Source: Yuukianura sp. NJ FZ-2021 (Eukaryota). From it: a stretch of 64,000 bases of DNA. A program made the position numbers and the translations under genes. Shown here piece by piece: positions 20,854 to 63,600 of this stretch (the stretch's first letter is position 1; every line of letters begins with the position of its first letter). The stretch spans positions 7,688,001 to 7,752,000 of the forward strand of contig CM102289.1 of the NCBI GenBank assembly GCA_046563655.1, in the 5' to 3' direction. The notes below the pieces were generated by a model, which was not told the DNA's origin, made no database searches, and saw only the letters and a list, made by a program, of their open reading frames with translations.

Positions 20854-22766
<1,913 letters not shown>

Positions 22767-23017: not shown

Positions 23018-26000
23018 TTAAACTCTTTCCGTTGAAATTGAATAAACACAACCAATACGCAGAAAGTATTGCTTGAGGAGGCGTTTCACTTCCGGATCCA
23101 CATCAACTGTCATCAAATCGCATAGCAGCGGATAGTACATTGTCGTGTGAATTTGGAACTACAAAAGGAAAACAAAGTTTCACATGTGTTAGTGTGATAT
23201 TCTGATATTGGCAATAGTACTGGCGATACTGGCAGTACCTTTTCATTTGTAAGTTGACCCAGTCTCTGTAAAGCTAAGCAGAGGAGACTCGTCCATTCTG
23301 GTTGTTTCAGGATCTTGGCATTGAGACTCATGAGACGTCGCTCTATTTCTCCCTGGATTCCAGCCTGGAGAGGATCCTCATAAATTCGAAAAAGTAGTCG
23401 GAGGCTTGTATTCATGGCATCGAGGAGTCTGTGCGGTTCCTGAAATAGACAACGATCACTGCATTTTCTCTCACATCATCATTTTCTTGTCCAACCGTTG
23501 AAGCTTACCTCACTAAAGCAGTCCAACGTATCCAAAACGATTATTAGATTTTCATCATTCAGGTAAGGATACATTCCTTGTTCTTGATTATAATCTTGGG
23601 GGGCTTGAATCTGAAAACCAAAAAAGAAGAGCCTTACCGTGACCCTGACCGCCGCACTCCAGCAACTTTAGGTAAGAATTTAATTTACCTTGTCTTCGTT
23701 ACTGCGACTTCCGTTTGATTGATAGAAAACGATGTTGTCAATGGTCAGAATCAGTTCATTTGGGAATGACATTTGTTTGGGCGTTCTCTTCGTCTTAGAC
23801 GTCGGAACATTTGGACTCTGCAAACACTGAAGAGACAACACAAACAAATTAACTCCTTAAGTAATCAACTTTTTAATTAAATTAAACCTAATTTAATTTT
23901 GAGTAGTTTTAATAACTTTACCATCCATTGAGCAATTCCTCTCAAAAACTCAACAGTACTTTTCCAAACACCAGGATTGAATTTGGATCCATTCGAAAGC
24001 ACGAGATGTTCTAAACAATGAATGGCGGAAATCGATAGTTGACAACTAGGATCTGGAATGAAAGAAGAATCTATTCAGACATTTGACGAACGTTCGTAAC
24101 GAAGGCGTAGCCAGATTAATCACCTCCTTCGATACACCATTGAAGCTGCTTGAACAGATCATCCATAAGCAGAGGTCCCAAAATATCGTAGTATTGCGTA
24201 AAAACGTCGATGATTGCAAATAAAGCATGATTGCATGTCGTCGTCATCCATTCTTTCTTCTACGAAAAAAATTCAATTACAAATTAGAAATTACTCAATT
24301 TTTAGATTGTGGGGTTAAATCAGCTGAGCTTCCATACAACTGCTTACTTCATTTAGTTGTTCTGGTAGCTTCATGTTATCAAAAATTCTAAAAATGATTT
24401 GAAACAAGTCTTTCCACCAATGCGGCTGGAATGAATACCCGTAAGTTTTGATTATCTCGAACATCACCTACAAAACACATGGAAAATGACTTAATAGTGC
24501 TGGATTCATTCAGCAATGTAATCAGTAATTCGTGTGCATTAAAGGATTAAACTTACAGTTAATCCACGGGTTCTGACGTCTAAGTTGCACCGGCCAATGA
24601 TACATGACAGTTCAAACAGAATTGGAAACCATCCTCTCACCCAGATTCTGTCAGCGTGTGGAATGTTTAGTTCATCCATACACTCAATCAAGAGCTAAAA
24701 CGAAATTCAAACGATAAAAACAATAAAACTATACTTTTCTAAAGTACTAACAGCAGAAATTGCAACTTGAACTTACATCTGGCTGTTTGTCGACAAACGT
24801 AGCGCAGTATCGGATGAGCCGAATGGATTCCATGCTAATGTCAGGATAATTTGTATTGCAGGCAAATTCAGAGAGGCATTTGATCCCGTTTCTTCAAACA
24901 GAAAATACTTTACCGAGTTAGGAAGTTATTTCACACTAAAAATCAACTATACCAGTAAAACGACCTCCTTACCCAAACGAATCCAACAGAATTGTTGGAT
25001 TACTGGAATAAAGCTCACCTATTGAAAAAAAAAGAGTAAAGAATTGTAGGTAAGTCAAACTTTTTCAAAAGCATAAATTAGAATCATTTGGAATCTCTTC
25101 ATACTTACCAATGATTCGGTTTGTAGTGATAAAGCACATTTCCACAATATTTGGATCCAAGTCGTTAGCACCAAGCGATAAGACACTAAAAATGTTCTTC
25201 CAGCCTGATCGAATCTTCCCTGACTGGTGGATCATTTGAGTGATACAACGCACAATCATATCTCGAATTGATGGTGACCTAAGTTAAACAGTCGCAAATG
25301 AACATCACCAACAGCATCTCTACGTAGGTTTAAACTTACGAATTCTTCTTCATGATATACTCAAATGGCCTCAAGAAGTCTTTCTGAAATCTGAAATTAG
25401 TAAACTCTCCTTTTTCAATAAACTTCATACTGAGTTGTCGCAAAGAATCAATTGCAAAGAACGCTATTTCATCAGTCAGACATCCTACGTGGTTAAAGTG
25501 GTCTCCTAGCACCTAAGCACGAATGACAAACATTTAGTGAACTGCCAATACATTCAGTTTGACTTATCAAGAAGGCTTGTACTTTCTGAGTATAAACTGA
25601 ACCTACCTCCCAGATTCTGGACCATTCCAACCGAATACGGGACATGTTGTAGTACGAGATTTCAACAATCTTTTGCAAACTGAACATCCGAGGATGATTT
25701 GAAGTAAGTTCATCCAATGAAACCGTGCACAACGCACGAACGAAATGGACAATACTGTCACCATCAAGCAGTGTCGATCCCGTAAATATTCTGTCCACGG
25801 CCACCAGAATTGACTGAGAAGATGTCGAGGTGATGGATTCCTTTACGCTGGCTGAAAACGATTAACACAATTCAGTATAAGAAATTCAATAAGGAAAAGG
25901 CGGGAAAAAGCAACACTTACGATCTAAGTGGTTCAAGTTGATATTCATAGGATTATGTGAATGTTGTTGCGACTGTGATTCCAGCATGGCAAAAGACTTG

Positions 26001-29000
26001 AGTCCACCGAGAGCACTGCTGACACCACTCACGTCTTTGCTTCTTGTTCCAACTAACTGTGCCAGTTCCAGTGAAGAAATGGCTTTCAAAATATCCAACC
26101 ACGCTGTGTCCAAGTAGTTCCCTTCCAACTGTCCAATTATTATCAGCGTCTTGATGGAATTGATATTCTTTGATTTCATTTCCGTTAGAGATGATGTATT
26201 CAGCAGAGTGAATCTCGCCAGGGCTTGAATATAAGCATCCCGTTCCAATCGCATTTGAAAAATACAAGCAATGTGTATGGCCAGTCGAATTCCTTCAAGG
26301 CACAACGTAGAAATGTTCTGTTCGTTGGAGTCCTGCAGTCCGACACTGAATGAAGCCAGAAACGGCGTCCAGGCCAACTAAACACCCAAAAAAATTTCTT
26401 TTTCAACTTCAATTTTATAAAAACGTTTGAGTGAATTTAGAATTACCTTGAACATTGGTCTGATATGCTCCAAGTGCTTTCCTTCAGTGAAATTTTGTTC
26501 TTCCTTTCCAATCGTAGTAGAGCCAATAAGACCCTTACTCCCGCTAGATTTCTTCGGAATATTTTTCATCTTGATTTCATTTCCAGCAATCTCGTCGTAA
26601 ATCCCAGACAGGTAAGCTTCCGGCAGATCTCTGCTGTCGTTGATTCCACGGTTCATCCGAATGTATTGCTCTTTGGTCATTTTCGTTTTCACCTGAAAAT
26701 GTATCACTAACTTCACTTCGAGTTCAACCAACTTCAATTGACAAAGAACTACGTGAATCGACGTTATAAAAAGGTTTAACAATGATTTAGTACGAACCTG
26801 TGGGCTATGTAAGTCCGTCGTTAGCATTATAATCGAGTACGCTAAGACGTATGCTGTATCCGCAGAGGTGAAAATTCCATTCCTGAAACAAACCCACAAA
26901 CAAAATCAGAATTTTTTTCCGAAAATCGAAAATGGCGGCTGCAATTGAAGCTACTAACGTTGGATTGCATTCACAGTAACGGGACGCAAACTTTTCCATG
27001 AGCCTATCAATCTTCTGTGCTTCTCCGGGAAGACGGAATCCTTGTAGGAAATATCGGAGAGCAGTAACAAAGTCTTGATCCTTAAAATTAAATTGGTCCA
27101 CATATGCGTGCATAACCTGCAAAAACGTTCAAAAGTTAAAACAAACATTCCTGTTTTTGAAATACCAGTAAAAACTGGACCTGCTTGTGCAGTGTGTCTG
27201 GATCTCCTAAATATTCCCCTATTCCCGTTTTGTCAACTCGGTCATCAGTGTGGAAAAATATTGCAATTTCAGTGGCCGTGTGACCTAGAAGATTATTTGC
27301 TTGCATGAACTTGATGCCTTCACTCGGTTTCCGGTTGAATCTGTAAACACACAAGCATTTAGCCAGCTGATTCTAAAAATTTTGAAGTACTATCACGAGT
27401 AACACTTACAGAAATAGCCCTTGTTCCCAAGTATTTTTGTGTGACTTCATCACTTCAAACTGCATAGGATTATCGACAACAACTTCCTCAATGTCCTCCT
27501 TCGGGCGACTCCATTCATCCATACATTGCAAAATCCCGACAAGTCCTCGTATCCCGTCGATTCTTAGGTCGGTCGAGTCCGTTGCGATTTTGCTCAAGTC
27601 GTTGACCAGCCTCTCGTAAATATTTACAGAGCCCAAATCACAGTCATAGTTTAGGTACAAATCTACAATGATTTGAGCATTCGAACAAATTGAAATCAGG
27701 GAGTTGAGAGTAAGGAGCTTGTGCGGATTTGAGCTGTGGGACGAAGCCTCCAAAATCGGGAAAATTATTTCCTTGAAGAAAAACTGCAAATTCAAAGAAC
27801 AACGCATTTGAGGGCTTAAACATCTCCAATGTTAATTCCAAGAGTAAAAAGAGTTACTAACCTCAATTTGAGAACGTAAGTGTTGTCGGAAATGAATAAG
27901 AAGATGAACAAATATTTTCATGGACAGCTCGAAAACGACAGGAACAGGACTGAGACCGTTCTTGTTCAATGAGATACACAGATATTGCTTGATCGCCGTA
28001 ATGAAAACGGGATTAGTTTTGAAAACTTGTCCAGGTTCTTGAACGATGCTCAGCAGAAGTTGGAGTGAAAGAATCTTTGAGCGGAGTTCGTGTGACCTGC
28101 AATGATAACAACATATAGATAGGTTAACTAAAATACTTGGCAGCATTTGTCTAAAACACACACCAACACTAATATTAACATATGATAATACTTAGGATCG
28201 TTGGGACTATTTTCCGGTAAAGGCTTCATACTCAACTTGCAGAGTGCACGGAATATGAGAAAGGCATCTTTTTGGAGAATGTGATTGAAAGCAGGCACGG
28301 GATGTGGTAAAGCATTGGGATTCTGCGGATCCAGAACGTAGCTTGTCGAGTCTGTCGGCGTTTCCAGTCCGTTTGCACTGGTTAGACTCTCCTATTCAAA
28401 AAATATAAGTTCATAAACATAAGTTTTTTCAAAGAAAAAAATATTTTTGAATTTTTCAAAAAGAGAATAGGACTCACTTGTGAAGGAATTCGACTGACCG
28501 GTTTCTCTTCAACATGCTTAGCGGTTTTCAGTGAAGAAGGTGGGTGCTGCTTTGTGCCGGTTTCAACAGCATTCGGTTTTGGTATCGATGCTTGCGGAGA
28601 AGTAATTTTCGTTTCCGGTTCTGGCGACTCAGAACCACCATTGATGCTGATTGGACGTTGCTCATGTTGATCACTAGAAGTATCAGCTGATTCCTGAGCC
28701 TTGGCACGTTCTTCGTTAGTATCGTTTTCAACTTCAATTGACTCTTCAAACGGATTTTTGCTGAGATTACTGTCACCTTGTTCAAAGCTTTCTGGCGGAA
28801 CAGCACTTCCAGAATGTTGCTCATCTTCAGAGTCTTCGAAAGGATTTTTGCTAGGTGGACGTTCTATTTCTTCAGGTTCATCAAATGGATTTCCATTCGT
28901 ATCGCCAGCTTCTACTTCAGATGCCGGTGGTGGCACTATTTCAACAGTAGGAGTAGGAGTACTGACTCCACCCCCTTCAGCTTCTTTGTCAACATTACCC

Positions 29001-30182
29001 TGCTCTTCAGTGATTTTGTGTGACGTTATTTCGACTTCAGGAGTCTGGGGAAAGGTGTCGCCGTTGACAACGGTAGCAGATAGTTCCGAGGATTCAGATT
29101 TGATTGATCCAATTACATCTTCGCTTTCGAAAGGATCCGGTTCTGTATCAATTGAGTCATTTTCCAAATCATAAGAAGCAGCATCTGATGGACATGTTTG
29201 GACATCACCATTCAAACCCTCAGTTCCAGCAAATTTTCCACTAACTTCTGATTTTGTAATGTCAGCAGTCTGTTCACATTCTACGTGATTCGTCTTGCCC
29301 TCAGCTTCAATTTCCTTCAATCCATTTTTTATAATGGTGCCTAAAGGTGATTCCTCATCTGAAGCTTTTCCAGAGTCTGTTCCGTAATCTTCACTTTCCA
29401 TCCGAATGTAAATAACATTCAACATTTGACTAAGGGTTCCCTTAGCCGTTGTGCTGTTGATAGACGATTTGCTTGCTAAGTAGATATTGTACACTGTTCG
29501 GATGGTCAGTAGAACAGTTCCTTCATGGATGGAAATGTGTGGTGAAGTGACTATAGTCAAAAGGGCTTTGATGATTTGTAATTGCACGCCTTCATCAGTA
29601 GTTGGGCCGGTGAAACAGGAACAAATTGATTCGACGAGGCGGTTGAGGAGATGTGTCGTGCTGATTATGACTTCGGTGCTGGTGGTGTGGACATCCGCTT
29701 TTGAGTAGTTGTTCCTCAAGTGTCCATATGCAATAAGTTTCTGAAACGATTCTCAACATAAACTAAACTTGAAAAGAAAATTATACACAAATAGGGGTAT
29801 ACCTGCAAGCAGTCAAGAGCAGTACAAACAATTCTTGGACTTCTCGATGTACATGCTTTCTCAAATGGTAAAAAATAATGTTCAGGAATGATGGCTGGTG
29901 TCGATGACGGTGGAAGCGGAAGTGCTGATGGTGTCGGAGAAGGGGATGATCCGGATTCATCTTCAGCCTGTTCAGACCCTTTCTTTAGTTCCTCTAAAAA
30001 CAAATCACAGTTCATCAACTTATGACACAGTAAAACTACATTTTAAATTATATGGCAGTCCTACCCAGCACACTTTCGCAGCTCGCCTTTAGATCCGAGT
30101 GATAAGATTTTCGGATGTCTCGCTCTTTCAAGATCTTTTCTAAGCTCCGTGCTAGAAAGGACTGGAGATTTGCCGATTGCAT
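23018..30182 (-). CDS. ARFGEF: Brefeldin A-inhibited Arf guanine nucleotide exchange factor (BIG1/BIG2/Sec71 type), multi-exon
   Basis: DCB domain (YFLPFEKAC...[25 protein letters not shown]), HUS box (YLNYDCD), Sec7 domain with the glutamic finger [22 protein letters not shown], and HDS motifs ([49 protein letters not shown]). Confidence 0.96.
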
Positions 30183-39420: not shown

Positions 39421-41815
39421 ATGTCACGCAAATTTCTGCTAGCGTTTTGCGTTCAACAGTTTCTGTGGAATTGGAATTTCGTTTTGGTCAATGGATTTGA
39501 GAAAGAGTCGTTTTCAATTTCTATGCCGAATGTTCAACCTACGAAGGTAAGTGAATCTAAAAATCAATTTCAATTAAAAAAAATGAAATAATTTCAAAAT
39601 TTTGTTTTTGAAATAATAGCCAGAATCATATCTGTGTACTCCAGTTCGAGTAGATCCATCGCAGGAGTATTATATAGGTAAGAAAATGTTTAACATTTAA
39701 TGCATCCTTTAATTTTCAAGTTTTAGAATAATGTTTCGAAGAAATTTTCAGAAAATTTTGAAAAATTAACTTAACTGTTTTTACAGTGGGATTTGAGCCA
39801 AACGCTACAATGTAAGTTGACTATACAAACTACTAGTTAACTAATTTCGAATTATACATCGTATTAATACATAACAGATAGTAATTACATTTTAATTACC
39901 AGTGAATTTCTTTCACACAACATTATAATCAAAAATTATGTAAACGATTTGGTATTTCACCGAATCGGACGCTTAAAATTTTGGTTCACGTACTACAGCA
40001 TTGGCATCTTCCTGGACCACCATAGTTTCCGCGTACCATTCCACGTCCAGTACAAAGATTGCTACAAATTTCCTGACTTCCTGGATAAAGTATTTGTAGG
40101 TTTCCGCCCAAGTCGTAGCACCAAGAATCCACGCAATCCAAAACCAGCAGTATGGAAACCAATGCCACAAAAATTTTGACGCTTGAACTAAATTTCGCCA
40201 TTTTTCGTAGAAGAAATTTAACCTCAACCAAAATTTTCTGTTTCTTCACAAAAATTTGCAACTGACTGAAACTCTTGTGATTTATATGAGCATCAATCGT
40301 CAATTGACTAAATTTTTTCCAGGAAAAACCACATCACATCCTCTTTTGCGCTTCAAATGTTGATTAGTTCGCAGTGTAAACTTTGAATTGATTAAAAATT
40401 CATGGAAAAAGTAGTGAATCATGTTGGAAAATAAATGTAATTTCGACTATTTGTATATTTTTTTACAGGGATGTGGCTCATCACATGCTTCTGTACGGAT
40501 GTGAAGAGCCAGGTCAGAAGGAAGATGTGTACAATTGCAATGAAATGGCGTCGGCCAATGAACCTGGTCTTAAGACTGCAAATCCATGTGGAAAGGGGAC
40601 AAAGATCATCTACGCATGGGCAAGAGATGCACCGCAGTTGCAGCTTCCGGAGGGCGTCGGATTCAAAGTCGGTGGAAACACTGAAATTCAGTACCTTGTT
40701 CTACAAGTTCATTATGCTGATGTCTCCACATTTGTGGAAGGTGATTAAATTTTGGAAATTTAAAATTGTTTGAAATATGAAAAAAAATGAAAAATATATT
40801 TTCTAACTTTGCAGGAGGAAATACTGATGCTTCTGGAGTGTCACTGATTTATACTGAAACTCCGTAAGCCAATCCTTGTCTTGCTTCAATGTCAGAGGCT
40901 AATTGTGAATGTGTGATTCGTTTGACCTTGAGTTTGACCTCAACCTTCATTGTTAGTAATTCAATGTATTGTTTCTAGGCAACCGAAAGCCGCTGGTGTA
41001 TATTTTCTCGGAACGAATGGATTTATTCCGCCGAAAAGTACAGAGTACATGGAGGCTGCTTGCAGAATAAACGAAGACGTCGTTCTACATCCATTTGCAT
41101 TCAGGGTACACACGCATTCGCTAGGTAAATGTTGGTTTTGATCACTAAAATGAGCGGGAAAATTTTAAAAATTCAATAGAGTTTTGAATGTCACTTTTGT
41201 TTGAACAGGACGCGTAGTCTCGGGATACCGTGTCAGACGAGGCATTGGTGGCGGTGGTGATAAATGGCAACTAATTGGCAAGAAAAATGTAAGTGGGACG
41301 TTGAAATTAGCAGCAACGAAGAAAGTTATTTGCGTTCTCATTAATTTTCACTTTTTAATTTTTTGATTTGTAGCCCATGAGACCTCAAATGTTTTACCCT
41401 GTCGAAACTGAAATGACGATCAAGAAGGGCGACATATTGGTAAAAACAAAATTTGATCGGCTTTTTGGAAATTTTGAAACTGTGGAAGTGAAAGTTTCGA
41501 TCAACAGTTTCTGGAATATTTTTAGGCATCGAGATGCACCATGGTCAGTGACAGGTTCAGATTCACAAGAGTCGGGTACTAAAAATTTCTTTCTAGATTT
41601 TAAAAATTTAAGTTTCTAAATTCCTAAAAAATTATTTTTTTGGTAGTGCTACAAATGAGGATGAAATGTGTAACTTCTACATAATGTACTGGATGCATGG
41701 AGATCAACCATTCAAAGAGAGGCACTGTTTTACTATGGGACCACCGATTTACCGGTGGGGCCGTGGTGGCTTACCGTTGAGCAACATTCCGGACAAAGAC
41801 GCATCATCAATTTGA
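39421..41815 (+). CDS. Phm: Peptidylglycine alpha-hydroxylating monooxygenase (monofunctional PHM), multi-exon
   Basis: Signal peptide, then MPNVQPT and YLCTPVRV. Copper ligands lie in AHHMLLYGC, LQVHY, FRVHTHSLG and DEMCNFYIMY; also IYAWARDAP and PQMFYP. The frame stops after the PHM domain, so there is no PAL domain. Confidence 0.95.
39986..40201 (-). CDS. Secreted cysteine-rich defensin/drosomycin-like peptide (71 aa precursor) nested antisense in a PHM intron
   Basis: Single-exon ORF MAKFSSSVKIFVALVSILLVLDCVDS-WCYDLGGNLQILYPGSQEICSNLCTGRGMVRGNYGGPGRCQCCST. It has a hydrophobic signal peptide and a 6-Cys mature region with CxxxC and CxC motifs. It lies wholly inside the PHM intron at about 39812-40468. 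Confidence 0.75.
   Translation of the reverse strand: MAKFSSSVKIFVALVSILLVLDCVDSWCYDLGGNLQILYPGSQEICSNLCTGRGMVRGNYGGPGRCQCCST
40260..40407 (-). promoter_or_regulatory. Putative promoter of the nested peptide gene: TATA, Inr-like, STAT-like and kB-like motifs
   Basis: On the minus strand, TATAAA at 40281-40286 and TCAGTT at 40260-40265. TTCN3GAA motifs occur at 40317-40325 (TTCCAGGAA) and 40399-40407 (TTCATGGAA). GGAAAAACC is at 40322-40330. Confidence 0.4.
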
Positions 41816-42283: not shown

Positions 42284-43593
42284 TCAACTTTTGTAGTTAT
42301 GTAAATTGGTTCCCTTGAACGAATTGTCTTTCTCACAAGTGGCCCTAAACGTATGTCCACTTTGTGGTCCAGGAGTTACACGGTCAGACCAGTTTGGCAA
42401 GGTCACGTGACAAGTCGTCACAAACAATTCGTTTAGCTGTTCACCTCCGAAGCAAAGCGATGTTGTTAGCGGTTCCTCAAAGGAAATTTCTTTCACAATT
42501 TTGCCTGAAATTGCCAAAGACAAAATTACTCATGCTAAAACTTACTTAGTAAAACTATATGCAGTAATCCTATTCTAAAATTTTGAACTTACCAGTTTGA
42601 ACATCAATATTCAAAACTTTGCCGGCCATGTAAATTGCTGTCCACAAATTTCCTTTGGCATCGACCACCATTCCATCCAGAATTGCTTTCGGATGATAAT
42701 TCAGTTTGGCTTGATCCAGTTCAAAGACAATTTTCTTCTCATTGCTCACGCTGCCTTCTTCAGCATTAAATTCTTGACCAATGACTTTCGATTCCGCTGA
42801 ATCCACAGTGTAGATTATAGTTTCATCCGGAGAAAAACATATTCCGTTCGGTCCGGTAAGTCCTGCCGTATGTCTCCGGAATCCGTTCGTTGAATCGAAG
42901 CTACAGAGACTTCCTGCGAAATCCATAAAAAAGTGACACAAAATTTTTTTTTAATCCCTGCGTTTTCTAAATTCTGATGCACAAGACCTTCGAAGCGTGC
43001 CGCCAATTCCATCGCGTCCGCATTTGAACCTGGCGCAGGCGCAGGGCCGTCTTTCCACTCTCCAACCCAAAGTCTCCCTTTGGAGTCACATGTAGCATCG
43101 TTGAAGTGGGTGTCATGAACTTGGTGAAGTAATGTAACTGGTTGGTTTGCTACATTCACGAAGAAAGATTCAGTTAGAATTTCAGTTTTCAATTAACCGA
43201 AATGTTTTTTGAAAGTTTACAATTTGGAGAGAACATTGCCAATTTGTCCTTTGCAATGACAATAAAATCTTTGTCGTTTCCGCCATTGTTATCAATTGGA
43301 ATGGCTGCCGAAATGTACTCCACATCCACGTCAATTGGAAAGCTAGTTTGATGTGGCTGCCCTCGACTGGAAAAGTCCAACTTTGTCAAACTTTGTCCAA
43401 AACAATCAACATAGTACAACACTTTTTCAGTAGCATCCCAATGCGGCCCTGGTTACATCAATAAGACATAACTATTTATATACGTTTCAATTTGAAAATA
43501 ATTTAGTACTTTGGATTTAAAAAATGCTTTAATCCAACCTTCTCCAAAGCCAACTGGTTCCAACGATGCTACTGAAACGTCAAATGCTGGCAT
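42284..43593 (-). CDS. Regucalcin/SMP-30/gluconolactonase family protein, copy 1
   Basis: FGEGPHWD, LYYVDC, HFNDATCDSKGRLWVG, GPNGICFSPDE, LDGMVVDAKGNLW and TTSLCFGG...LFVTT across five exons. Confidence 0.92.
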
Positions 43594-45812
43594 CCTTTGG
43601 ATATTTCCACTCCAAAAATAACACTGTTATAAGAATGTTCAGATCAGCAATAATTTGAGCACAAACTCCAAGTTTGCCGATGAAAATTGAACAAGTAAAC
43701 AAGAAAACACTCGTAATCTGCACAAAAAGCTTACTAAAGCGGATTGTAGCCAGGAAAGAAGACAAGATCCACTTTGACATGAGTAGAGATGCTATAAAAA
43801 GTAATTGAATTTACCATTCATGCATTCACACTTCAACATTGACCTTGTAACTGTCACACTTCAAAAAGAAAACTTATTCATAAGAAGAGATTCAACCTTT
43901 AACATTTTGAGTTTTCTGTTTTGTCAATTATATACTCTACACTTCACAATACATAATAAACGAATTTTGTTAATTTAAAAATCTTTTTATAAATTCTTCA
44001 AGACGTTTTAAATTCAAAATCGGTAGAAACACGTAAATTCAGTACCTTACAAGTCCAAAACCCAAAAGTTTTAGCCCAATTTTTAATTGGTTTTTAAGTT
44101 AAATGTAATTTTTGATGAATAAAATTTCAAATTTTGAAATGAATAGAAAATTTTCATTTAGAGCCCTGGTAGTTATGTAAAATGGTTCCCTTGAACGAAT
44201 TGTCTTTTTCACAAGTAGCTCTAAACGTATGTCCACTTTGTGGTCCAAGAGTCATGCGGTCTGACCAGTTTGGCAAGGGCACGTGACATGTCGTCACAAA
44301 CAATTCGTTTAGTTGTTCACCTCCGAAGCACAGCGATGTTGTTAGCGGCGCCTCAAAAGAAATTTCGTTCACAATTTTGCCTGAAATTGCAAAAAAAAAA
44401 ATTACTCACGCTAAAACTTGCTTTGTAAAACTATATATTGTAATTCTATTCTAAAATTTTGAGCTTACCAGTTTGAACATCAATGTTCAAAACTTTGCCT
44501 TCCATGTAAATTGCTGCCCACAAATTCCCTTTGGCGTCGACCACCATTCCATCCAGAATTGCTTTTGGATGATAATTTAGCTTAGCTTGATGAAGTTCAA
44601 AGACAATTTTCTCTTCTGTGCCGACGCTGCCTTCTTCAACATTAAATTCTTGACCAATGACTTTCGATTCCACGCAATCTACAGTGTAGATCATAGTTTC
44701 ATCCGGAGAAAAACAAATTCCGTTCGGCCCGGAAATTCCTGTCGTGCGTCTTTGGAATCCATTTGCCGAATCGAAGCTGCAGAGACCTCCTGCAGAATTA
44801 ATAAAAACAGTAAAAAGTAGTTTTAGTTCCTAGATTTTTAAAATTCTGAAGCATGAGACCTTCAAAGCGTGCCGCGAATTCCTCCATGAAGTCCAGATTT
44901 GAACCTGGCGCAGGCGCAGGGCCGTCCTTCCACTCTCCAACCCAAAATCTCCCTTTGGAGTCACATGTAGCATCGTGCAAGTGACCGCCATGAACTTGGT
45001 GAAGTAATTCAACTGGTTGCGTTGCTACATTTTGCAAAACAAAAAATTAGTTAACACAATTTTAATTTTTAAGTTAGAAAAACATTTTGTAAGTTTACAA
45101 TTTGGAGAGAACATTATCAATTTTTCCTTCGCACTGACAATAAAATCTTTGTCATTTCCGCCATTGTTGTCAGTAGGAATGGCTGCCGAGATGAATTCAA
45201 CATCCACGTCAATTGGAAAGCTAGTTTGACATGGCTTTCCTCGACTTAAAAAGTCCAACTTTGTCACACTTTTTTCAAAACAATCAACGTAGTACAGGAC
45301 TTTTTCTGTAGCTTCCCAATGAGGCCCTGGTTACATAAAGAAAACAGTATTATTTATATTCTTTTAAATTTGAAAATAATTCAGTATTTTGAATTTGAAT
45401 TTCATTTTAATCCAACCTTCCCCAAAACCAACTCGTTCTAACGATGCTGTCGTAACTTCAAACGCTGACATCTTCAGGATATTTCGACTCCAAAAATAGA
45501 ACTGAAATAAAAATGTGCAGATCACAAATAGTTCGAGACAAACTCCAAGGAAAGTTTACTTATGAAAATACAAATCGAATAAGTAAACAAGAAAGCACAC
45601 GTAATGTACACAGAAAGCTTACTCAAAGCAGTTGTATTCAAAAACGGAGACAAGATCCACTTTGACATGAGTGGAAGATGCTATAAAGAGTAATTGAATT
45701 TACAATTCATACAATCACACTTTCAACATCGACCTTGTAACTGTCACACTTCAAAAGAAATTTATTGCTAAAGAAAGATTCAACCTTTAACATTTTCAGT
45801 TTTCTGTTTTGT
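42300..45812. repeat. Tandem segmental duplication (about 42300-43925 and 44175-45812) carrying the regucalcin gene plus about 330 bp of upstream sequence
   Basis: Similarity is visible in exons, introns and upstream DNA. For example, agacaagatccactttgacatgagt, gaccttgtaactgtcacacttcaaaa and agattcaacctttaacatttt occur in both copies. Confidence 0.9.
44154..45471 (-). CDS. Regucalcin/SMP-30/gluconolactonase family protein, copy 2 (tandem paralogue)
   Basis: Same five-exon structure and motifs as copy 1: FGEGPHWE, HLHDATCDSKGRFWVG, GPNGICFSPDE, LDGMVVDAKGNLW and TTSLCFGG. Confidence 0.92.
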
Positions 45813-53683: not shown

Positions 53684-56152
53684 TTACTGTTGTTCCTTTC
53701 TGAGTAAATAGGCAGACCAATACGCTAAATGAGAAAAAAGAGAAAGTAAATACACTGGAACTAGGACGCTGTAAATATCATCTTACACTTTCCTCAAACA
53801 GTCTTGATAGTAATGAGATACTTTACTTACCTAAATTAAAAAGAGCAAAGATAAGTGGAAATACAATCCTGGAGATGACATCAATTCGTTTGGAGCGAGA
53901 AGGAAACTTTGCAAGCCACGTCTTGCAACAGCCTGCTTGATTCCGTCCAGCGAAATTAATTTCACATTGCTTCTCGCGTGCTTTCTCCAGTGCCACTCCC
54001 AGTGCGTCACCTTTTCGATTGATTCCTTCCTGCAAAACAACAAGATCATCTTCACTCCATTTAAAAAAAAAACGCGGCGAAATTAAAATCAATGGTGAGA
54101 AACTATGGCGTTTGGGAACAGTCCCACTTAGCACAGGATGAGAGCGTGATAGCTCAAGGGTTAGAGTGCTTCCCGGAGAGAAGAGATGTGGGTTCGAATC
54201 CCACTCGGTCCTGTATTTTTTCTACACTCTCGCTCTTTGTCTCTCAAGCCATGTGACCCCTGAACTTCACAAAACTTACGATTCGCACGGGTTCCTTGAG
54301 GGTATCATCGGAAGCGGCGACAACCAAAGCAGCTTCCAGAGCAGCTCCTTGTTCCAGCTCCCACTGACGCCTTCGCTTCTTAAGTGCTTCCCGATGTTGA
54401 TCGGATCTTGAGGCGTAGTTGACAAGTGCAAATTCCATAAGAGCACCGAAAACAAACATGAGACAAACGCCTGTCCAAACGTCTAGAGCTTTCTGTGACG
54501 GTGACAAATGATTCAATTACTTCGACTCCACAATGCCACCAAATGATAAATAAATATTGCTGGAGAAAATATTTTCTTTGGCGTAACTTACCATGTAGCT
54601 CACAGGAGGGAGCTTTTGGTTGGTCGAAGAAGTTTGAGTTGCCATTGTGAGCAGCGTTGTAACGCCGAGACTGACCTGCATTCCAAATATTCTGTTAAAA
54701 AGTTTTTGGTAAACTCTTTTTTGAAAACTTGGAAAAATTTACTCACCCTTGCCGGAACAGCGCTTTGGTCTAACCAGAAGGAAACCCACGAGACAATTAC
54801 CAACATACAACACGGAATGTATATTTGAAGGAGATAGTAGGAAAATTGTCGCTTGAAAAGCAAATCCACACGCAGGCAACTATAAATTCCTGAAATCAAC
54901 AAACGAAAGTTAAAATTAACAAATTTGCGAGTTGTGACTAGTTAGTGCTGATATAAATTTTAAACTTGCCAGTATTTGTGTGACTATCACAGTAGTCAGT
55001 AGCAAATTGCTGAAGAGCAAATTTGGGCAGATGTAGGTTGTCAGTAACTTGTACCGGTCTATGATTCTTCCATTGAAATATTAAATCTGCTGTTGTCCAT
55101 CCATCTACAATCAGAAAACATTTCATTAGAAAAATTCCACCAATCGGAAACAAGTATTCACCGCAATATCTCGATAAGCTTACAACTGGCCATGCGCAAC
55201 GAGCACGTTTGAGAATCAAGCGGATACAATTTGAGAACCATTGGACAGGCAAGTGTCAGGGAAATCCTAAATCCAAAACAAAAAATCCGTTGACCTTCTA
55301 CTATTTTGAATTCAGTGCGAAAATTTTTTGTTTTACCGAATGCTATAAAGTACTTCGCCGGTAGGGTATATACGAATGTACACATTTGGCATAATAATTT
55401 CATGGAGATGACCTTGTTTTTCATTTGAAAAGAACAAGTCAGGCATCCAAACTTTCTTGGAATCCGTTAGCGTCAAGTACGGAATAGTTCCTGAAATAGG
55501 CACCCAAGAAATGCTTTAGTTCAGCAGAAATTCAAAATTCTTCTAAAAATTAATTACTTTTCAGAACTTACTTGTAGGAGGTATGAGATGATTAAATTTG
55601 AGTCGCTCGTCTGTCCATTCTTCTCTAAATGTAAGCTGAACACTGTACTCCTAACATTACAAAATTCAAAAGTCAAACCAAAAACTACTAAAAGCTAATT
55701 TCAGAAATTCATTTACAAAAATATTTGAAATTGGGTCATACCATTTTGATGTCGTCAATTGTGGCTATACTTCGCACAAACAAATTAACGCTGACGATTG
55801 TTGCAGCTAGAAACATATCATAAAATGTAAAAGTAAACAAAATTAATATAATATAAATTCATTAATTTGAATCACTTACTACTTCCGTTTACTCCGGACG
55901 GTCGGATTTTGCTGTCGTAGACCTTACCTCCAAGGATTTTGTCCAGCACTTCTTTTTCTACTTCTCGACTATTTTTGTCTCCACTAAACAACAAAAATGG
56001 ATCCAAAAAATACAACCTATGTTACAACCCAATTCTTTAAAAATTTCAACTTACTGTGTCGAGACACTGGTGAAAGTGAATGAAAATATGAAAAGAGTCA
56101 CTAAAATTTGAAAGATCAGTTCCACACAACCTCCGGGTATCCGAGAATACAT
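53684..56152 (-). CDS. GluCl: Glutamate-gated chloride channel subunit (Cys-loop ligand-gated anion channel), multi-exon
   Basis: Signal peptide, [37 protein letters not shown], Cys-loop [15 protein letters not shown], loop [16 protein letters not shown]2 [16 protein letters not shown]3 [23 protein letters not shown] and TM4 [13 protein letters not shown]. Confidence 0.93.
54133..54221 (+). ncRNA. tRNA-like Pol III element (pseudo-tRNA or tRNA-derived SINE head) antisense within a GluCl intron
   Basis: A-box TAGCTCAAGGG (54150-54160), D-stem GCTC/GAGT, CTTC/GAAG stem with a 7-nt loop, perfect T-arm GTGGG-TTCGAAT-CCCAC and a T6 terminator (54216-54221). The acceptor stem is irregular. Confidence 0.6.
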
Positions 56153-57779: not shown

Positions 57780-59870
57780 TCAATATCTTCTCTGTATGAA
57801 AAAATAAGAGGATTGTGTAGTAAGTAGAAAGCAAACAATGTACCAAATACCCAGAATTAGTCAACCGTCACGTATCCATTGACACACAGCCTCAATGAAT
57901 TGTAAAACTAATTGATCTGTGAAAGGTATGCTCATGTAGTAGAAGCTCCATGAATCCTAAAATGTTAATTGAAGTGTTTTGCTTACCTTTATTTCGTGTA
58001 AATCCCCCTTTCCGTATCCACCTCCCCCTCCACCGCCCATTCCATGTCCAGAATCGTACGCACTAAAAATAAGACAATCCAAAACATAAATGCGACATTC
58101 TGATGAGTTTGATTTGCAGTTTTCCATTTTAAAATCATGAGCCTTACTTTCGGTTTGGTCCACCTCCATGTTGAAATTTGTTCATAAACATTCCATCTTG
58201 ACCTGGATTATTCCATCCTTCGTTTCCACTCCCGCGGTCCATACCACCACCACCATACCCTCCGCTAACATTCCCACCAGCGTGTCCAGCGTAGTTCCCA
58301 TTTCCAGGCATCGTATTGAATGGATTGGTGGTTTGGAGTTGCGTTGTATTGAAGATGGCGATGTTTCCAGGTTTAAGTACGCCATAGGAAGCCAAAATAT
58401 TGGAAGCTGCAATAATCTCTTGTGTTGCTTTTGGAGGATAACCGACGTTAAGGAGATAGGCCTTCATGCCTTCCAGCATATGGGGAGGAGGTGTGTGTCC
58501 GTCTGGAAACAAGAAGTTCATACACCGTCATTTAGCACATGGAGAATTTCAAGATTTGAATACAGATATCGTACTCACTTGCAATTGGAGGTCCGGAATA
58601 TGTACACCAAAAATGTACTTGCGGTGGGAAGGTGTTCGTGGAAATGCCAATTCCGTTGCCTCCAGGCACTGCTGGAGAAGGTTCATTCCCTCGGCCTTCT
58701 CTTGCACTCATCATCTCACCACGTCCGCCACCCTTGTCCCAATGTCGTCCTGAATTTGAGTTAACACAACTTTAATTCATTCCGAGTTCATAATCGAATT
58801 GAAATTAATCAATTACTTACGTGGAGGCGGCTCCTCGTAGTAGTCGTCCTGGTAATCGTCCCGCCTTGACCCACGACCGTGATGCATTTCACGTCGTTCC
58901 GTATCCGAGCCAGAATAATTTATAATTAAGCAAGATCCGCTGGAAGGATCAGTCTTGATAACGTCCAGAATCAGTTTCAGTCCCTTTTCGATGTGTTCAG
59001 CGCTACCTGTGAACAAGAATGTATAACTACAACGCCGTCGCGACTCACGAGACGACTGCCTAGAACTTTGTATAGAAGTGGTTCACAGCATGTATTCAAC
59101 TTACTATTGTTGTTATGAATTGTGACAATCCTTTCATTGGAAGGAACGTGATCTGTTTTTTGGGTTAGGGTAATATGGCACCCAGATTCCTCTTGGATAC
59201 TTTTGACCCGACTTCCTCCTTTGCCGATGATTAATCCAGCCGTAGTTTGTGGTACAACCAACGAAATCTGGAAATGAGAACAAATATGTTAAACAAACGT
59301 TTCATTACCATTTTAGAATTACTTTACTTCTTTATCCGAAACAGACTTTGGACGGGAATTTTTAGGAAAAAGATCCGAAGGCGATGTCATCCGCTTGAAA
59401 ATGATCATCGTAGCGGTCAACATGTTATTCACGCTACCCGACATCAGAGCCACACGACTGTCTGTCCCTGAATTTATAAGATTGAAAGAAAAACATCAGA
59501 TATTGATATTATGCCCCACTTTTAATAAATTCCTTAAATTCGTACCTGGAAAAACATCATTTGCTTTTGACATTCGAATATGGACATTATATTCTTTCTG
59601 CAATTCCGAAATATTGGCTCCTCCTTTGCCAATGACAGATCCAGCAGTGGCTTGCGGTACCAAAAACTTCAAATACAGTGCTTCCGAATCTAGTTTCAAG
59701 GGTCAGATATAAAAAACTTAAGTTTTACATCGTATCCACTTCTAAAACAGAAAATCAATAAATCTTAATTTACCTTCGTTGTGTGATCTTTTTTGTGGAG
59801 CTCGTTCTCCAGCATCGTCCCCATCATTGTTGTTAGCCCGTTTCCTGGAATTATTGCCGTCTTCCTCCAT
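57780..59870 (-). CDS. Nova/pasilla-like KH-domain RNA-binding protein, multi-exon
   Basis: N-terminal SRKR...QKRS NLS-like segment. KH1 is LKFLVPQATAGSVIGKGG...RMSKANDVFPGT and KH2 is VVPQTTAGLIIGKGG. The Nova-type DPSSGSCLIINY follows, then a Gly/Asn-rich tail. The terminal exon is inferred. Confidence 0.8.
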
Positions 59871-60624
59871 TCTTTAAGTAGACAACTTCGATTCCTGAAT
59901 AACGTAATCTCCTTTAGTGACACTAACAAAAGCGTTTGTACAAATGACCAAATCAGTTTCACTTCCGGTGTTCCGGTACCGGTAGCTTTATTCTGCAAAA
60001 CTAAAAAAAAATCCCATATGGTTTGTGTTTCAACATATTTTGAATAACGAAAAACTTACCGAAGAAGGTTCTCAACAACAGGGGAAGCGGAAATACAAAG
60101 GAAATAATTTGATAGATTATAAAAAACGATACTCAATTCGGCACGCACTGCAAATCATCTGATCTCTCAAGTGAACGCAATTGAAAATTAAAAGTGAAAT
60201 CAGGGTTGACTATTCCACAGAATTGGCAGAAAATTTAGCGTCAATAATTTAAATGTCATATGCTAAACCGCGCGAATTTTGAAAAATGGCAAAATACCTT
60301 TTGTTTTTGTTGCATTTGAGATTTAGCATTTGCATGACAAAATACTAAACTACAAAATGTGTCCTTTTACTTAGCATTACGGAGTTTTGGAATTCACATT
60401 TTGTAATGCCGTTTTGCTGCATTTCGTAGTGGCATTTGGCAAAATCTAAACATGTGATTTTGTTATTGTTTTTTTGACAAGCTGCGTTACCGGTTTTTAT
60501 TTACGATGCTTAATTATTGTTTAATTATTAATTAATTAAAGTATTCTGTGATATCAAGTAATTGACGAACGGGGATTTTTGACCTGACAAATGTGTTTTA
60601 CTTAATACCTTGAACTTGAAGGAA

Positions 60625-63600
60625 ATGGAAATGGAGTCAGACAATCCCAAAGGTGAAGGTCACCGTGTTTTACGGGTCTTACCGCAAGAAAGTTCTTCGT
60701 TCTACCTCCAACATTGTACACAACTTCCAGAAAGCATACTGCAAATCGTTAATCCCTACAGCACTGGGTTGGAAGAATACATAAGCCTTTGTGTCACTCG
60801 AAATGAAAGCGGGCGTGCAAATGATGTAAAGCATAGAACTAACATTCTTCTAAGGATTTCAGCGTTTGAAACAAATTCTGGAGTTACTGCTGATGAAAGC
60901 TCAATCACTTGCGATATTAGAGTCCAGGAAATACACCTTGAAAATTCAGCAGATCTGGCAAGGTTCCCACAATTGAATGAAGTGGATATACTGGTCGCGT
61001 GTTCAATCAGAGACATGTTGTGTAACTACTGGGATCGACATAGAAACATTTATGTTAAGGTAATCCTCCATCACGATTTTGTAATGCAAATGATTAACGA
61101 GATTTTGCTATGATATTCGTATGATTTGCAGATGCCGATGATATCGGATCACTCAACTTTAGATGATGACTTCCCTGTGCACAAACTGAAGTGCAGCACT
61201 ATTCGAACCATGTCAGTGACTGTAATTTTTGAAGATTTGAGTCATAATCAACCGGATAGGGATTTTTCCGGTGATTTTTCTAAACAGCTACTGAAGGATG
61301 CTTTCAAGGCGTATGGAGTTCATGTCAAAGGAAATACAGTAATTGACTTTCGGGAATGCCCGTTCCTCTCCGCCTTCCAGTGGAAGTTAAACTTTGTTTT
61401 TGTTCATGACTGTGTGATGTCCAATTCTCAAGCGGACATTGGCAGACTGAACAGTCAAACTCAGATTACGATTCGGAGAAATCACGACGTACCTTACTTT
61501 CGGAGGATTCTGGACGCAGTATCAACCATTAGGGACGATTCCTTTCCTGGACTTGAACCGGCATATGCTGGATTGAAGTCTTGTTTTGAGATTCATCCTC
61601 CATCTATCACGAAGCAATTGTCGAAGAAACACTATTATTCGGGAGTTCTACTTGGAGGTCCTTCAGGATCAGGCAAGAGGAATCTGGTTCTGCAAATTGC
61701 CAAGATGTACTGTGCTAGAATATTTTCAAGCAACTTGGGCGTTGAGGAGCAGAAGATACGACAAAGTCCAAAAACAGTAATTGAAAAGATGACGAAAATT
61801 TTTGAAGATGCAAGTTATAGCAGTGCAGTCTGCGGCTACCCAGTTTTAATTCTTCTAGAAAACTTGGAAGTACTTCGAGCGGATGACGCTGCGTTGACCT
61901 CTCGGACCCGCCATAACAAAGAGGCTATTACAAACCATATTTGTGATCTGTTGGATGTCGCTGGGACGGACGTGAGGCTAAACGTTCCATTTGTTGTAGT
62001 GGCCACCACATCCAAACCGTACTTGATTCCAGAAAAATTAAGAATCTGTTCCAGGCTAAGTCAAGAGGTATGACATTCTACTGCCAAGTACTTGCATTGT
62101 TAACATTCGAACTAATTTATAATTGCATTTCACTTTCTTCTAGATATTTATCAACGTGCCTGATTTAGCCGAGCGAGTCGAGATTCTAAAGTCTATGCAA
62201 GCCGAGAATTCAGAACTTTCATCACTGAACATTGAATTCTTAGCGAGAAGAACTCCGGGATACGTTCGCTCTGACCTAATTCGATTAATCAATCTGGCGC
62301 TACTCAAATCCCATGTTAGTCAATGCGACTTTTACTCATGATATCATTATGATTTTATAATTTAAATCTTAAACTTATTAATTTTACATAGGAAACAAAC
62401 GACTGTCAAAGTTTTGAGAAACATCTCAAGTTTGCCCTCTCTCGTGTCCTTCCTTCTGTACTGCAAGGTGGCATTGGTGTAATAAGCAGCAAAGTTTCTG
62501 AAGGTTTGGAACGCATTTCTGGGCTCGACGCTGTCAAAATGGAGCTAGTGCAAACAATTGTTTGGCCATTGGTCATTCCAGAAGCGCTGGAACGGATGGG
62601 AATTCAGCCTCAGAAAGGTATGCTGAAGTTTTTTTTGTGCAGATTATGGAGAATGTTGGAAGTAAAAATTAGTTTGTTTGCAGGAATAATCTTGTACGGT
62701 CCTTCAGGATGTGGGAAAACATCGCTAGTACGAGCTATAGCCAGCAGTCATCATACCAATTTCATCTCTGTTTCTTCCGCAGAATTATTTTCTTGTGGTG
62801 TTGGAGACAGTGAAAAAATAATTTCTCATTTATTTCATTTAGCGAGACAAGCATCTCCTTGTGTCCTCTTCATAGATGAACTTGGTAAAAAATAATTTTT
62901 TTTTAAATTTATGTCAACACTGTGATCTAAAAATAATTTTTTTTAATTCCAATTTAGACGCGATTGTTGGCTCAAGGGATTCGAAATCTTCCGGTGGGAA
63001 AGGAGTGAATGACATGATACTTTCAATGCTTTTGACTGAGATGGACGGAATTGGACAACGGAACTCATTTGCCGTTCAAGGACATGATAAAGTAAGTAAT
63101 AAAAGCTATTTATTGTAGGTCTTTTTGCGAAAATCTGATAATAATGAAATATTTTTATCTTAAGAAATCGCCAGCATTTGGGCAGCGATTTGTAGTCGTT
63201 GGAGCCACCAACCGTCCGGAGATGATAGATTCGGCATTACTCCGCCCAGGACGCTTCGATCGCCTTGTCCCTGTACCTCCGCCAAACGAAACTGATCGAC
63301 TAAAGTTGTTGAAGAACTGTACCCGGAATACTGCTTTAGGCAATGATGTGATACTTGAAAGCATCGCTAAAAGAACAGAGCGCTTCTCTGGTGCGGATAT
63401 TGTCAACCTTTGCAGAGAGGTAGGGAAACTCGACATGTAAAGTTAATAATTTCTTCAACCTGGTACAAATTAAGTTTGTTTTACTTGCAGGCGGGACTTC
63501 GTGCTCTTTCCGAAAATATCGACGCTACTTGTGTATCAATGAAGCACTATGAAGATGCTTTAAGTGGATGTTCTCCTTCGATATCTAACCAATATCTAGA

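Follow-up and report, generated by a model that had tools for sequence, protein, structure and literature searches.

The cis-defensins have in common the cysteine-stabilised-helix (CSH) motif CxxxC...CxC (PMC5116183; PMC11561630; both are cited, like the other papers here, for the sections available). The drosomycin-type peptides pair eight cysteines as C1-C8, C2-C5, C3-C6 and C4-C7, and the three-disulfide drosomycins DtDRS-9 to -11 of Drosophila takahashii lost the C1-C8 'wrapper' bond and kept the three core bonds (PMC4999892). The classical six-cysteine arthropod defensins, including three from the springtail Sminthurus viridis, follow the spacing C-x5-6-C-x3-C-x9-10-C-x7-C-x-C (PMC10051947). 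The subject of this study is an open reading frame (ORF) in a 64,000-nucleotide stretch of Yuukianura sp. NJ FZ-2021 (GenBank assembly GCA_046563655.1, contig CM102289.1, positions 7,688,001 to 7,752,000), which is called the window and whose numbering is used throughout. The ORF lies antisense inside an intron of the PHM gene; judging from the DNA, it is probably a lineage-restricted orphan gene for a secreted peptide, plausibly a cis-defensin variant. It is likely to be a real coding gene, or to have been one until recently, and given a real gene a fold of the cis-defensin type is reasonably likely. The complete reading, in which a springtail gene in a PHM intron encodes a secreted CSH peptide with three disulfides, probably including an N-to-C bridge, and with host defence as its likely role, is tentative and falls a little short of an even bet.

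The original prediction had placed an intronless 71-codon ORF on the minus strand of a PHM intron of about 650 nucleotides (nt), and it was found there, in an intron of 657 nt. The frame runs from ATG to TGA, and its translation is MAKFSSSVKIFVALVSILLVLDCVDSWCYDLGGNLQILYPGSQEICSNLCTGRGMVRGNYGGPGRCQCCST. The parts of the predicted precursor are as follows:

39986..40201, minus strand: secreted-peptide precursor (predicted), an intronless ORF of 71 codons plus the TGA stop
40124..40201, minus strand: predicted signal peptide, residues 1-26, as read from the sequence and by a crude rule
39989..40123, minus strand: predicted mature peptide, residues 27-71, 45 amino acids, GC content 0.467

The precursor passes the n/h/c-region and (-3,-1) rule, both on reading of the sequence and by the crude rule, and a small mature domain lies behind. 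The n-region has K3 and K9, the hydrophobic core I10-L21 has 12 residues, and V-D-S stands at -3 to -1. The crude rule permits a cut after residue 23 or 26, and all six cysteines remain in the mature peptide either way; this is consistent with the claimed division into a signal peptide of 26 and a mature peptide of 45 residues. With the 26/27 cut, the cysteines are at positions 2, 20, 24, 40, 42 and 43 of the mature peptide, in agreement with the claim, and the framework is C-x17-C-x3-C-x15-C-x-CC. The mature peptide has 9 Gly, a reduced mass of 4832.5 Da, an isoelectric point of 7.77 and a net charge of about +0.7. It contains a glycine-rich loop (7 Gly in 14 residues) and an adjacent CC pair at the C-terminal end. 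Two further features that had been pointed out are also present: G32-N33-Y34 occupies the place of the gamma-core GxC, and the peptide ends in S-T, with no Gly there to amidate.

Within this framework, the segment C20-x3-C24-x15-C40-x-C42 has the CSH motif. On the ten-cysteine reference array of Tarr, the peptide would fill C1, C3, C4, C8, C9 and C10, with G-N-Y at the gamma-core position. For the third bond of the cis-defensins, there is no cysteine between Cys2 and Cys20, nor between Cys24 and Cys40. Cys2 and Cys43 appear to sit at the wrapper positions, and their pairing is possible by elimination.

Comparison with drosomycin and the eight-cysteine plant defensins (PF00304) showed several similarities. 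These include a precursor of about 70 residues with a signal peptide, a mature peptide of about 45 residues, a near-neutral net charge, and cysteines beside the N-terminus and beside the C-terminus, at the wrapper positions. The CxxxC...CxC motif with a 15-residue gap is also shared with drosomycin, in the drosomycin numbering of the original prediction; the topology assumed there (C1-C8 plus a three-bond core) is that of PMC4999892. However, the peptide has six cysteines instead of eight and lacks both the n-loop and the gamma-core cysteine. Leu and Tyr stand where C2 and C5 would be, in line with the claimed absence of both partners of the 11-33 bond. Moreover, its last cysteine follows directly after CxC (CxCC), and no profile or sequence similarity to these families was found. 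The DtDRS-9 to -11 peptides are similar in having three disulfides (inferred for the peptide) on a four-disulfide cysteine-stabilised alpha-beta (CS-alpha-beta) scaffold. Their loss of the wrapper bond supports the earlier statement that familiar three-disulfide relatives lost the terminal bond; in the peptide, by contrast, the wrapper positions would be retained and one of the core bonds would be missing.

The classical defensins, including those of S. viridis, are also secreted (as predicted for the peptide), and they share with it six cysteines, the CxxxC and CxC pairs and the occurrence in springtails. In the peptide, however, the first cysteine lies 17 instead of 5-6 residues before CxxxC, none lies between CxxxC and CxC, and an extra one follows CxC; therefore the cysteine pair outside the CSH motif is at different structural positions. 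The long-chain scorpion sodium-channel toxins (Toxin_3) combine the CS-alpha-beta core, of which the peptide has the motif, with a wrapper, and they occur among its ESM and Foldseek neighbours. With four disulfides and 60-70 residues, these toxins are distinct from the peptide, and in them the last cysteine comes after a long C-terminal extension (PMC5116183); no sequence match to them was obtained. Zhu proposed the CSH peptides of Myxobacteria, which have two disulfides only, as ancestors of the defensins (as cited in PMC11561630); here, too, the CSH core occurs and the third CS-alpha-beta bond is lacking. Unlike these bacterial peptides, the one described here carries a predicted eukaryotic signal peptide, and its termini have a third cysteine pair.

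The diapausins are the commonest cysteine-rich antimicrobial peptide family of springtails, with the collembolan motif C-x3-C-x9-14-CC-x9-11-C-x6-9-C (PMC10051947). They also have six cysteines, one CxxxC and one CC; however, their CC is central with two cysteines after it, whereas that of the peptide is C-terminal and one cysteine lies 17 residues before CxxxC. Membership in the diapausins or in the Alo (knottin) family was rejected, as the cysteine motifs given in the available part of PMC10051947 do not fit C-x17-C-x3-C-x15-C-x-CC. Other described peptides include the Blattella drosomycins, with eight cysteines and a PF00304 match (PMC7712779), the six-cysteine PDFL defensin-like peptides of Arabidopsis, which retain the gamma-core (PMC8460643), and the cremycins, with insect-defensin spacing (PMC5116183). 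A limited look through the literature revealed no published peptide with the present framework; to that extent, the term 'undescribed variant' is plausible.

In the ESM Atlas, the precursor had a recognition score of 2882 (a score of 2300 is reached by 91% of known-family and 9% of shuffled proteins). Its nearest cluster was 'drosomycin-like' (0.86, 179/256 features), and the ten best family-bearing matches all belong to one defensin clan. The mature part was closest to gamma-thionin clusters (0.82) and scorpion short toxins (0.80), with neighbours at 0.75-0.82. The AlphaFold2 model of the precursor has a helix at residues 42-52 over CxxxC and a strand at 65-69 over CxCC. Plant defensins together with scorpion alpha-toxins are the top rows of the Foldseek search, although at E values of 0.25-2 (best defensin E 0.25, TM 0.51 by target length).

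Several of these results weigh against a cis-defensin fold. The ESM scores lie below the trust level of the tool (0.9) and are leads only, and ten matches from one clan are also obtained for a third of shuffled proteins. The AlphaFold2 models, made with no alignment, are of low confidence (pLDDT 63.7 for the precursor and 58.7 for the mature peptide alone), and the mature-only model, which is worse than that of the precursor, shows the helix alone. Foldseek gave no match at E<=0.001. VIA-align placed defensins at Z 2.4-3.1, with root-mean-square deviations of 2.3-3.2 over 41-45 residues, mixed with unrelated folds; a second look together with a wide search gave nothing at Z>=5, the top being the APP copper-binding domain (Z 4.7) and assorted alpha/beta folds. 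The gamma-core GxC, which is present in all bacterial defensins of the available part of PMC11561630, is missing from the peptide. On the AlphaFold2, Foldseek and VIA-align results, the fold is compatible with a cis-defensin and is not established as one. Thus, the claimed CS-alpha-beta core stands as regards its CxxxC-x15-CxC spacing; whereas the fold evidence for it is insignificant.

Sequence searches also told against this assignment. A word-index search of 5.8 billion protein clusters gave no homologue of the peptide, and phmmer against 1.84 billion representatives gave 0 matches at E<=0.001. At E<=10, hmmscan found no PF00304, Defensin_2 or Toxin family in the precursor, in the mature peptide or in the extended frame, and phmmer against the PDB at E<=10 found no defensin. 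The tblastn search of the window returned only the ORF itself, with no paralogue in the 64 kb; that of 27 related PHM loci found no relative (best E 0.11, over 13 signal-peptide residues). Neither a paralogue nor the same nested position, both of which had been suggested as a check, was therefore found in the window or the 27 loci, and the intron is absent from all 13 loci that cover its site. These 13 loci lack the host intron altogether, and their PHM identity is at most 84%, hence they are not close relatives; the absence of the ORF from them therefore neither supports nor refutes its conservation. Among viral contigs, there were 67 pattern matches and no relative of the peptide. The Pfam scan of the peptide showed only a sub-threshold BphX match (E 0.053).

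One marginal sequence match was obtained in the PDB, to 8in3_A, a '25 kDa polyphenol-binding protein' (E 0.081; mature residues 11-41 against 12-42 and 85-109). Kinship with this protein was rejected: the similarity is a local repeated ...NLC...GNY..P..C stretch only and the cysteine framework differs, so the motif was judged a product of chance or convergence.

At the sequence level, the claimed drosomycin-like kinship thus failed, given the PF00304 and PDB searches above, and the peptide, which also lacks the eight-cysteine framework and the gamma-core, is not a demonstrable member of the drosomycin/gamma-thionin family. It might still be a strongly diverged true Drosomycin-family member that lost the Cys2-Cys5 pair, which is very improbable. 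The top ESM cluster is indeed 'drosomycin-like', the cysteine spacing parallels the drosomycin numbering of the original prediction, and the locus is a lineage-specific insertion. Moreover, the available part of a 2026 preprint reports the Drosomycin (Drs) family in two species of Collembola and argues for its horizontal movement among insects (10.64898/2026.03.03.709459). However, that text stresses the high similarity of the transferred Drs genes, which is absent in the peptide. True drosomycins have eight cysteines and match PF00304 (PMC7712779), while the peptide has no such match at E<=10, and phmmer yields no drosomycin in the PDB or in the library of 1.84 billion proteins.

The peptide could also be a real secreted cysteine-rich peptide with another fold or pairing, which might serve in signalling as a ligand, belong to the cuticle or the gut, or resemble a toxin; this is rather improbable. 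All features of a real gene (GC island, third codon positions, simulations and signals, described below) count equally for it, and the evidence for a defensin fold is insignificant. The adjacent C-terminal CC and the glycine-rich loop are atypical, and the sole PDB sequence match is the polyphenol-binding protein. The exact CxxxC...CxC motif argues in the other direction, as do the ESM neighbours: whether or not the signal peptide is included, all of them belong to cis-defensin or scorpion-toxin families. Known alternative frameworks do not fit either. For example, the collembolan diapausin and Alo knottin motifs differ; the single residue between Cys40 and the CC is incompatible with the beta-defensin spacing; and Pfam CBM_14 and other cysteine-rich families gave no match to the peptide.

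The combination of features was compared with chance expectation using first-ATG ORFs of 50-120 amino acids on both strands, in the window and in 300 simulated 64-kb windows from an order-3 Markov model. The real window contains 161 such ORFs, and the crude signal-peptide rule was passed by only one of them, the ORF at 39986..40201. The simulated windows contained 30,211 ORFs (about 100 per window), of which 127 were signal-peptide-like (0.42 per window); one of these had at least six and an even number of cysteines, and none also had 6 or 8 cysteines with the CxxxC...CxC core. In a relaxed pattern scan of the window and the 27 related loci, the ORF was the sole match. When the mature peptide was shuffled 200,000 times, the core appeared in 2.6% of the sequences, and the core plus cysteines near both termini in 0.034%. 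The length of the ORF alone is insufficient evidence, and the combination of features is rare. These figures call for caution, since the rules were set post hoc, after the candidate had been seen, and since in a scan that comprised about 250,000 windows altogether a few such cases may arise by chance.

The ORF forms a compositional island. Its GC content is 0.44, compared with 0.264 and 0.295 in the flanking parts of the intron and 0.478 in PHM exon 4, which places the island about 5 standard deviations above its flanks (a binomial estimate from these GC figures). The third-codon-position use of the ORF (A.28, C.20, G.18, T.34) is nearly equal to that of the 2,614 Pfam-supported codons of the window (A.28, C.19, G.21, T.32). 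Measured against the local intron composition, the synonymous-codon log-likelihood ratio (LLR) of the ORF is 9.7 bits, where exons span 2.6-20.8 per 71 codons. The full-codon log-likelihood is less favourable, as it does not discriminate: the ORF ranks 53 of 173, with 0.26 in frame and -0.14 in frame +1. This full codon-usage LLR is weak even on known exons (0.05-0.17 bit per codon).

Candidate transcription signals on the minus strand lie on both sides of the ORF, whose start context is gaaaaATGg, i.e. A(-3)/G(+4):

40281..40286, minus strand: candidate TATA box TATAAA, 80-85 nt upstream of the ATG, the sole TATAAA on the minus strand of the intron and a weak signal in AT-rich DNA
40261..40269, minus strand: two overlapping initiator-like TCAGT motifs, TCAGTCAGT, 19-23 nt past the start of the TATA box
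39891..39896, minus strand: candidate poly(A) signal ATTAAA, 90 nt downstream of the stop codon, the only one on the minus strand of the intron

The host intron contains no AATAAA. TCAGT is the arthropod initiator consensus; its distance from the TATA box is too short for a textbook core promoter, which counts against the gene. Since the TATAAA upstream and the ATTAAA downstream are both intronic, the intron could accommodate an entire transcription unit of about 390 nt. Such promoter and poly(A) motifs are weak evidence for a gene where the DNA is AT-rich. The opposite plus-strand frame at 39901-40176 is also open for 92 codons, a further point against the minus-strand gene. The island might accordingly belong to the plus strand, as an alternative exon of PHM, or be a non-coding RNA of the intron, but this is hardly credible: the plus-strand frame has no ATG and no Pfam match, the PHM homologues are contiguous over NATM/DVAHHM with no extra residues, Rfam gave nothing for the island at E<=1, and its RNA fold z-score of 0.15 indicates no excess structure.

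The host is an intact, monofunctional PHM gene on the plus strand, with exons at 39421-39546, 39620-39677, 39787-39811 and 40469-40741, then five more, and a stop near 41815. It aligns with the PHM of Orchesella cincta (P0007) from residue 49 to the C-terminus, undisrupted. The collection of 5.8 billion protein clusters does not contain this PHM itself; the closest PHM match in it is 83% identical (a metagenome contig), and matches from named organisms reach at most 69%. The parts of the gene around the ORF are:

39787..39811, plus strand: PHM exon 3 (25 nt), by homologue alignment
39812..40468, plus strand: PHM intron 3, 657 nt, GTAAGT...TTTTTACAG, dividing the Met codon in ...NATM/DVAHHM...
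40469..40741, plus strand: PHM exon 4, Cu2_monooxygen N-terminal domain (PF01082, E 1.3e-17), by Pfam and alignment

The remaining eight PHM introns, whose boundaries are accurate to 1-2 nt, are about 70-115 nt long. From the window, the N-terminal part of the PHM translation, after splicing, was aligned to 27 metagenome loci encoding PHM relatives. The junction ...NATM/DVAHHM... is covered by 13 of these (L001-L009, L012, L023, L025 and L026), and the 14 others stop short. In all 13, the coding sequence is contiguous at this site and the host intron is absent. Eight of the 13 (L001, L003, L004, L005, L012, L023, L025 and L026) have introns elsewhere and are therefore genomic DNA. Exons 3 and 4 are fused in L001 (336-469), L004 (3557-3696) and L005 (77-389); in L001, the nearest locus (84% identical over 101 amino acids), about 134 nt lie between exon 2 and the fused exon 3+4, compared with 790 nt in the window. 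By these alignments, the 657-nt intron is either a gain in the lineage of the window or a loss in every sampled relative, and its absence from the 13 loci points to a gain; the ORF occupies the middle of this intron. The locus L003 has an intron of its own (2831-2901, about 70 nt) about 7 codons downstream of this site, after ...AHHML, which shows that these PHM genes differ in where their introns lie near the copper-binding HHM motif.

A transposon origin of the intron was considered and is unsupported, as the terminal inverted repeats are not significant (p 0.16 and 0.33). There are no further copies of the intron in the 64-kb window or the 27 related loci, and no target-site duplication at its ends beyond one ambiguous G. 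A 17-nt inverted repeat (39975-39991 and 40221-40237, 88% complementary) brackets the ORF almost exactly, past the stop and before the ATG. This pair could be AT-rich chance or a remnant of the ends of an inserted unit; the short repeats in the intron, this one among them, are indistinguishable from AT-rich chance. Nothing relevant on intron gain in Collembola was found in the literature.

These observations bear on a non-functional origin, in which the ORF is a chance or decaying frame, with no stable product, in GC-richer foreign DNA inserted into, or grown inside, the PHM intron. We consider this unlikely, although it is a serious competitor. Since the host intron is lineage-specific, all of its 657 nt may have been inserted recently, and no homologue was found anywhere searched, nor a paralogue in the 64 kb. 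The island is open on both strands with a codon LLR of about 0, the ESM scores are below their trust threshold, and chance alone supplies about 100 ORFs of 50-120 amino acids and 0.42 signal-peptide-like ones per window, with a look-elsewhere effect in a scan of this size. However, the start, signal peptide, even cysteine number, CSH spacing and stop occurred together in 0 of the 300 simulated windows, and the cysteine arrangement is rare for its composition (the 0.034% of shuffles). The exon-like third positions and the GC island about 5 standard deviations over its flanks are also not expected of a chance frame; nor is the ESM recognition score of 2882, given that 2300 is reached by only 9% of shuffled sequences. 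Moreover, the intron shows neither repeat copies in the window and loci nor significant terminal inverted repeats.

A single event might account for both the intron and the ORF. The gene for a secreted peptide, complete with promoter and poly(A) signal, would have landed antisense in the middle of a PHM coding exon, splitting the Met codon before HHM, and the whole 657-nt insert would now be spliced out as a new spliceosomal intron. Intron gain and gene gain would then be one, and the cargo would be a cis-defensin with an undescribed framework (CSH core and N-to-C wrapper, without the gamma-core bond). This scenario is a long shot.

For the reading preferred here, that of a secreted CSH peptide gene, we infer the following course of transcription, cleavage, pairing and folding. 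The 71-residue precursor would be the product of an intronless, self-contained gene that occupies the minus strand of the springtail PHM intron. Transcription would begin about 25-30 nt downstream of the TATAAA at 40286-40281, and its end would lie shortly past the ATTAAA (39896-39891), so that a unit of about 390 nt is contained entirely in the intron. The signal peptide would be cut off after Ser26, and the glycine-rich, near-neutral peptide of 45 residues would fold on the CSH core. Cys20-Cys40 and Cys24-Cys42 would staple the helix (mature residues 16-25 in the AlphaFold models) to the C-terminal strand, and the leftover Cys2 and Cys43 would tie the termini together. The product would be of a cis-defensin type that keeps the wrapper positions (C1 and C10 of Tarr's array) and lacks the third core bond (C2-C6, with the gamma-core cysteine). 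Its most likely role would be that of a secreted antifungal or antibacterial host-defence effector of a soil animal. A functional link to PHM is not expected, because the peptide has no C-terminal Gly to amidate.

The springtail placement was examined with another gene of the window, strumpellin. The search with one of its exons returned springtails first, with identities of 52-53% (Orchesella), 49% (Folsomia) and 47% (Allacma). A quick maximum-likelihood tree was reconstructed from 24 rows and 1,168 columns, using 23 of the 29 matches; P0132, P0135, P0142, P0144, P0148 and P0149 were left out as fragments or duplicates. The window falls inside the clade of the four Collembola (SH-aLRT 100); its branch there is long (0.83), and its sister group consists of Folsomia and Orchesella (support 84). 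It therefore represents a springtail lineage without a representative among annotated genomes. The other recognised genes of the window, strumpellin included, look ordinary:

4691-9186, minus strand: strumpellin (WASH complex subunit 5)
17334-17753, minus strand: BIR-domain protein
21715-22543, plus strand: thiolase
23116-29752, minus strand: BIG/Sec7-type ARF-GEF
60583-63440, plus strand: AAA ATPase

Just downstream of PHM are two SMP-30/gluconolactonase/LRE-like genes (PF08450) on the minus strand (42570-43192 and 44446-44829), whose exon translations are very similar; the pair appears to be a tandem duplicate. At 54148-54206 (plus strand), there is a partial Rfam tRNA match (34.8 bits, model positions 6-65), for which ARAGORN makes no call and which overlaps a 132-codon minus-strand open frame without a Pfam match; it may be a tRNA-derived repeat. 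Another open frame without a Pfam match, at 58144-58527 (minus strand), contains a glycine-rich stretch (GGYGGGG...GSGNEGW).

Should the ORF not be expressed, it is merely a curiosity of a young intron. The PHM locus itself offers a clean, datable new intron in a conserved enzyme gene, coinciding with a nested gene-like insert, so the origin of both is testable. According to the available part of a homology-based survey of five collembolan species, each yielded only 5-13 antimicrobial peptide genes, with defensins in one species, and its authors suspected hidden novel peptides (PMC10051947). If the preferred reading is true, a lineage-restricted, unannotated peptide of the host-defence type would be added to the springtails. 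Moreover, the cis-defensin scaffold could then lose the gamma-core disulfide and yet keep the terminal bridge. Such a pattern of loss would be the reverse of that in the known three-disulfide drosomycins, and it would be relevant to the question of which minimum of the scaffold folding and activity require.

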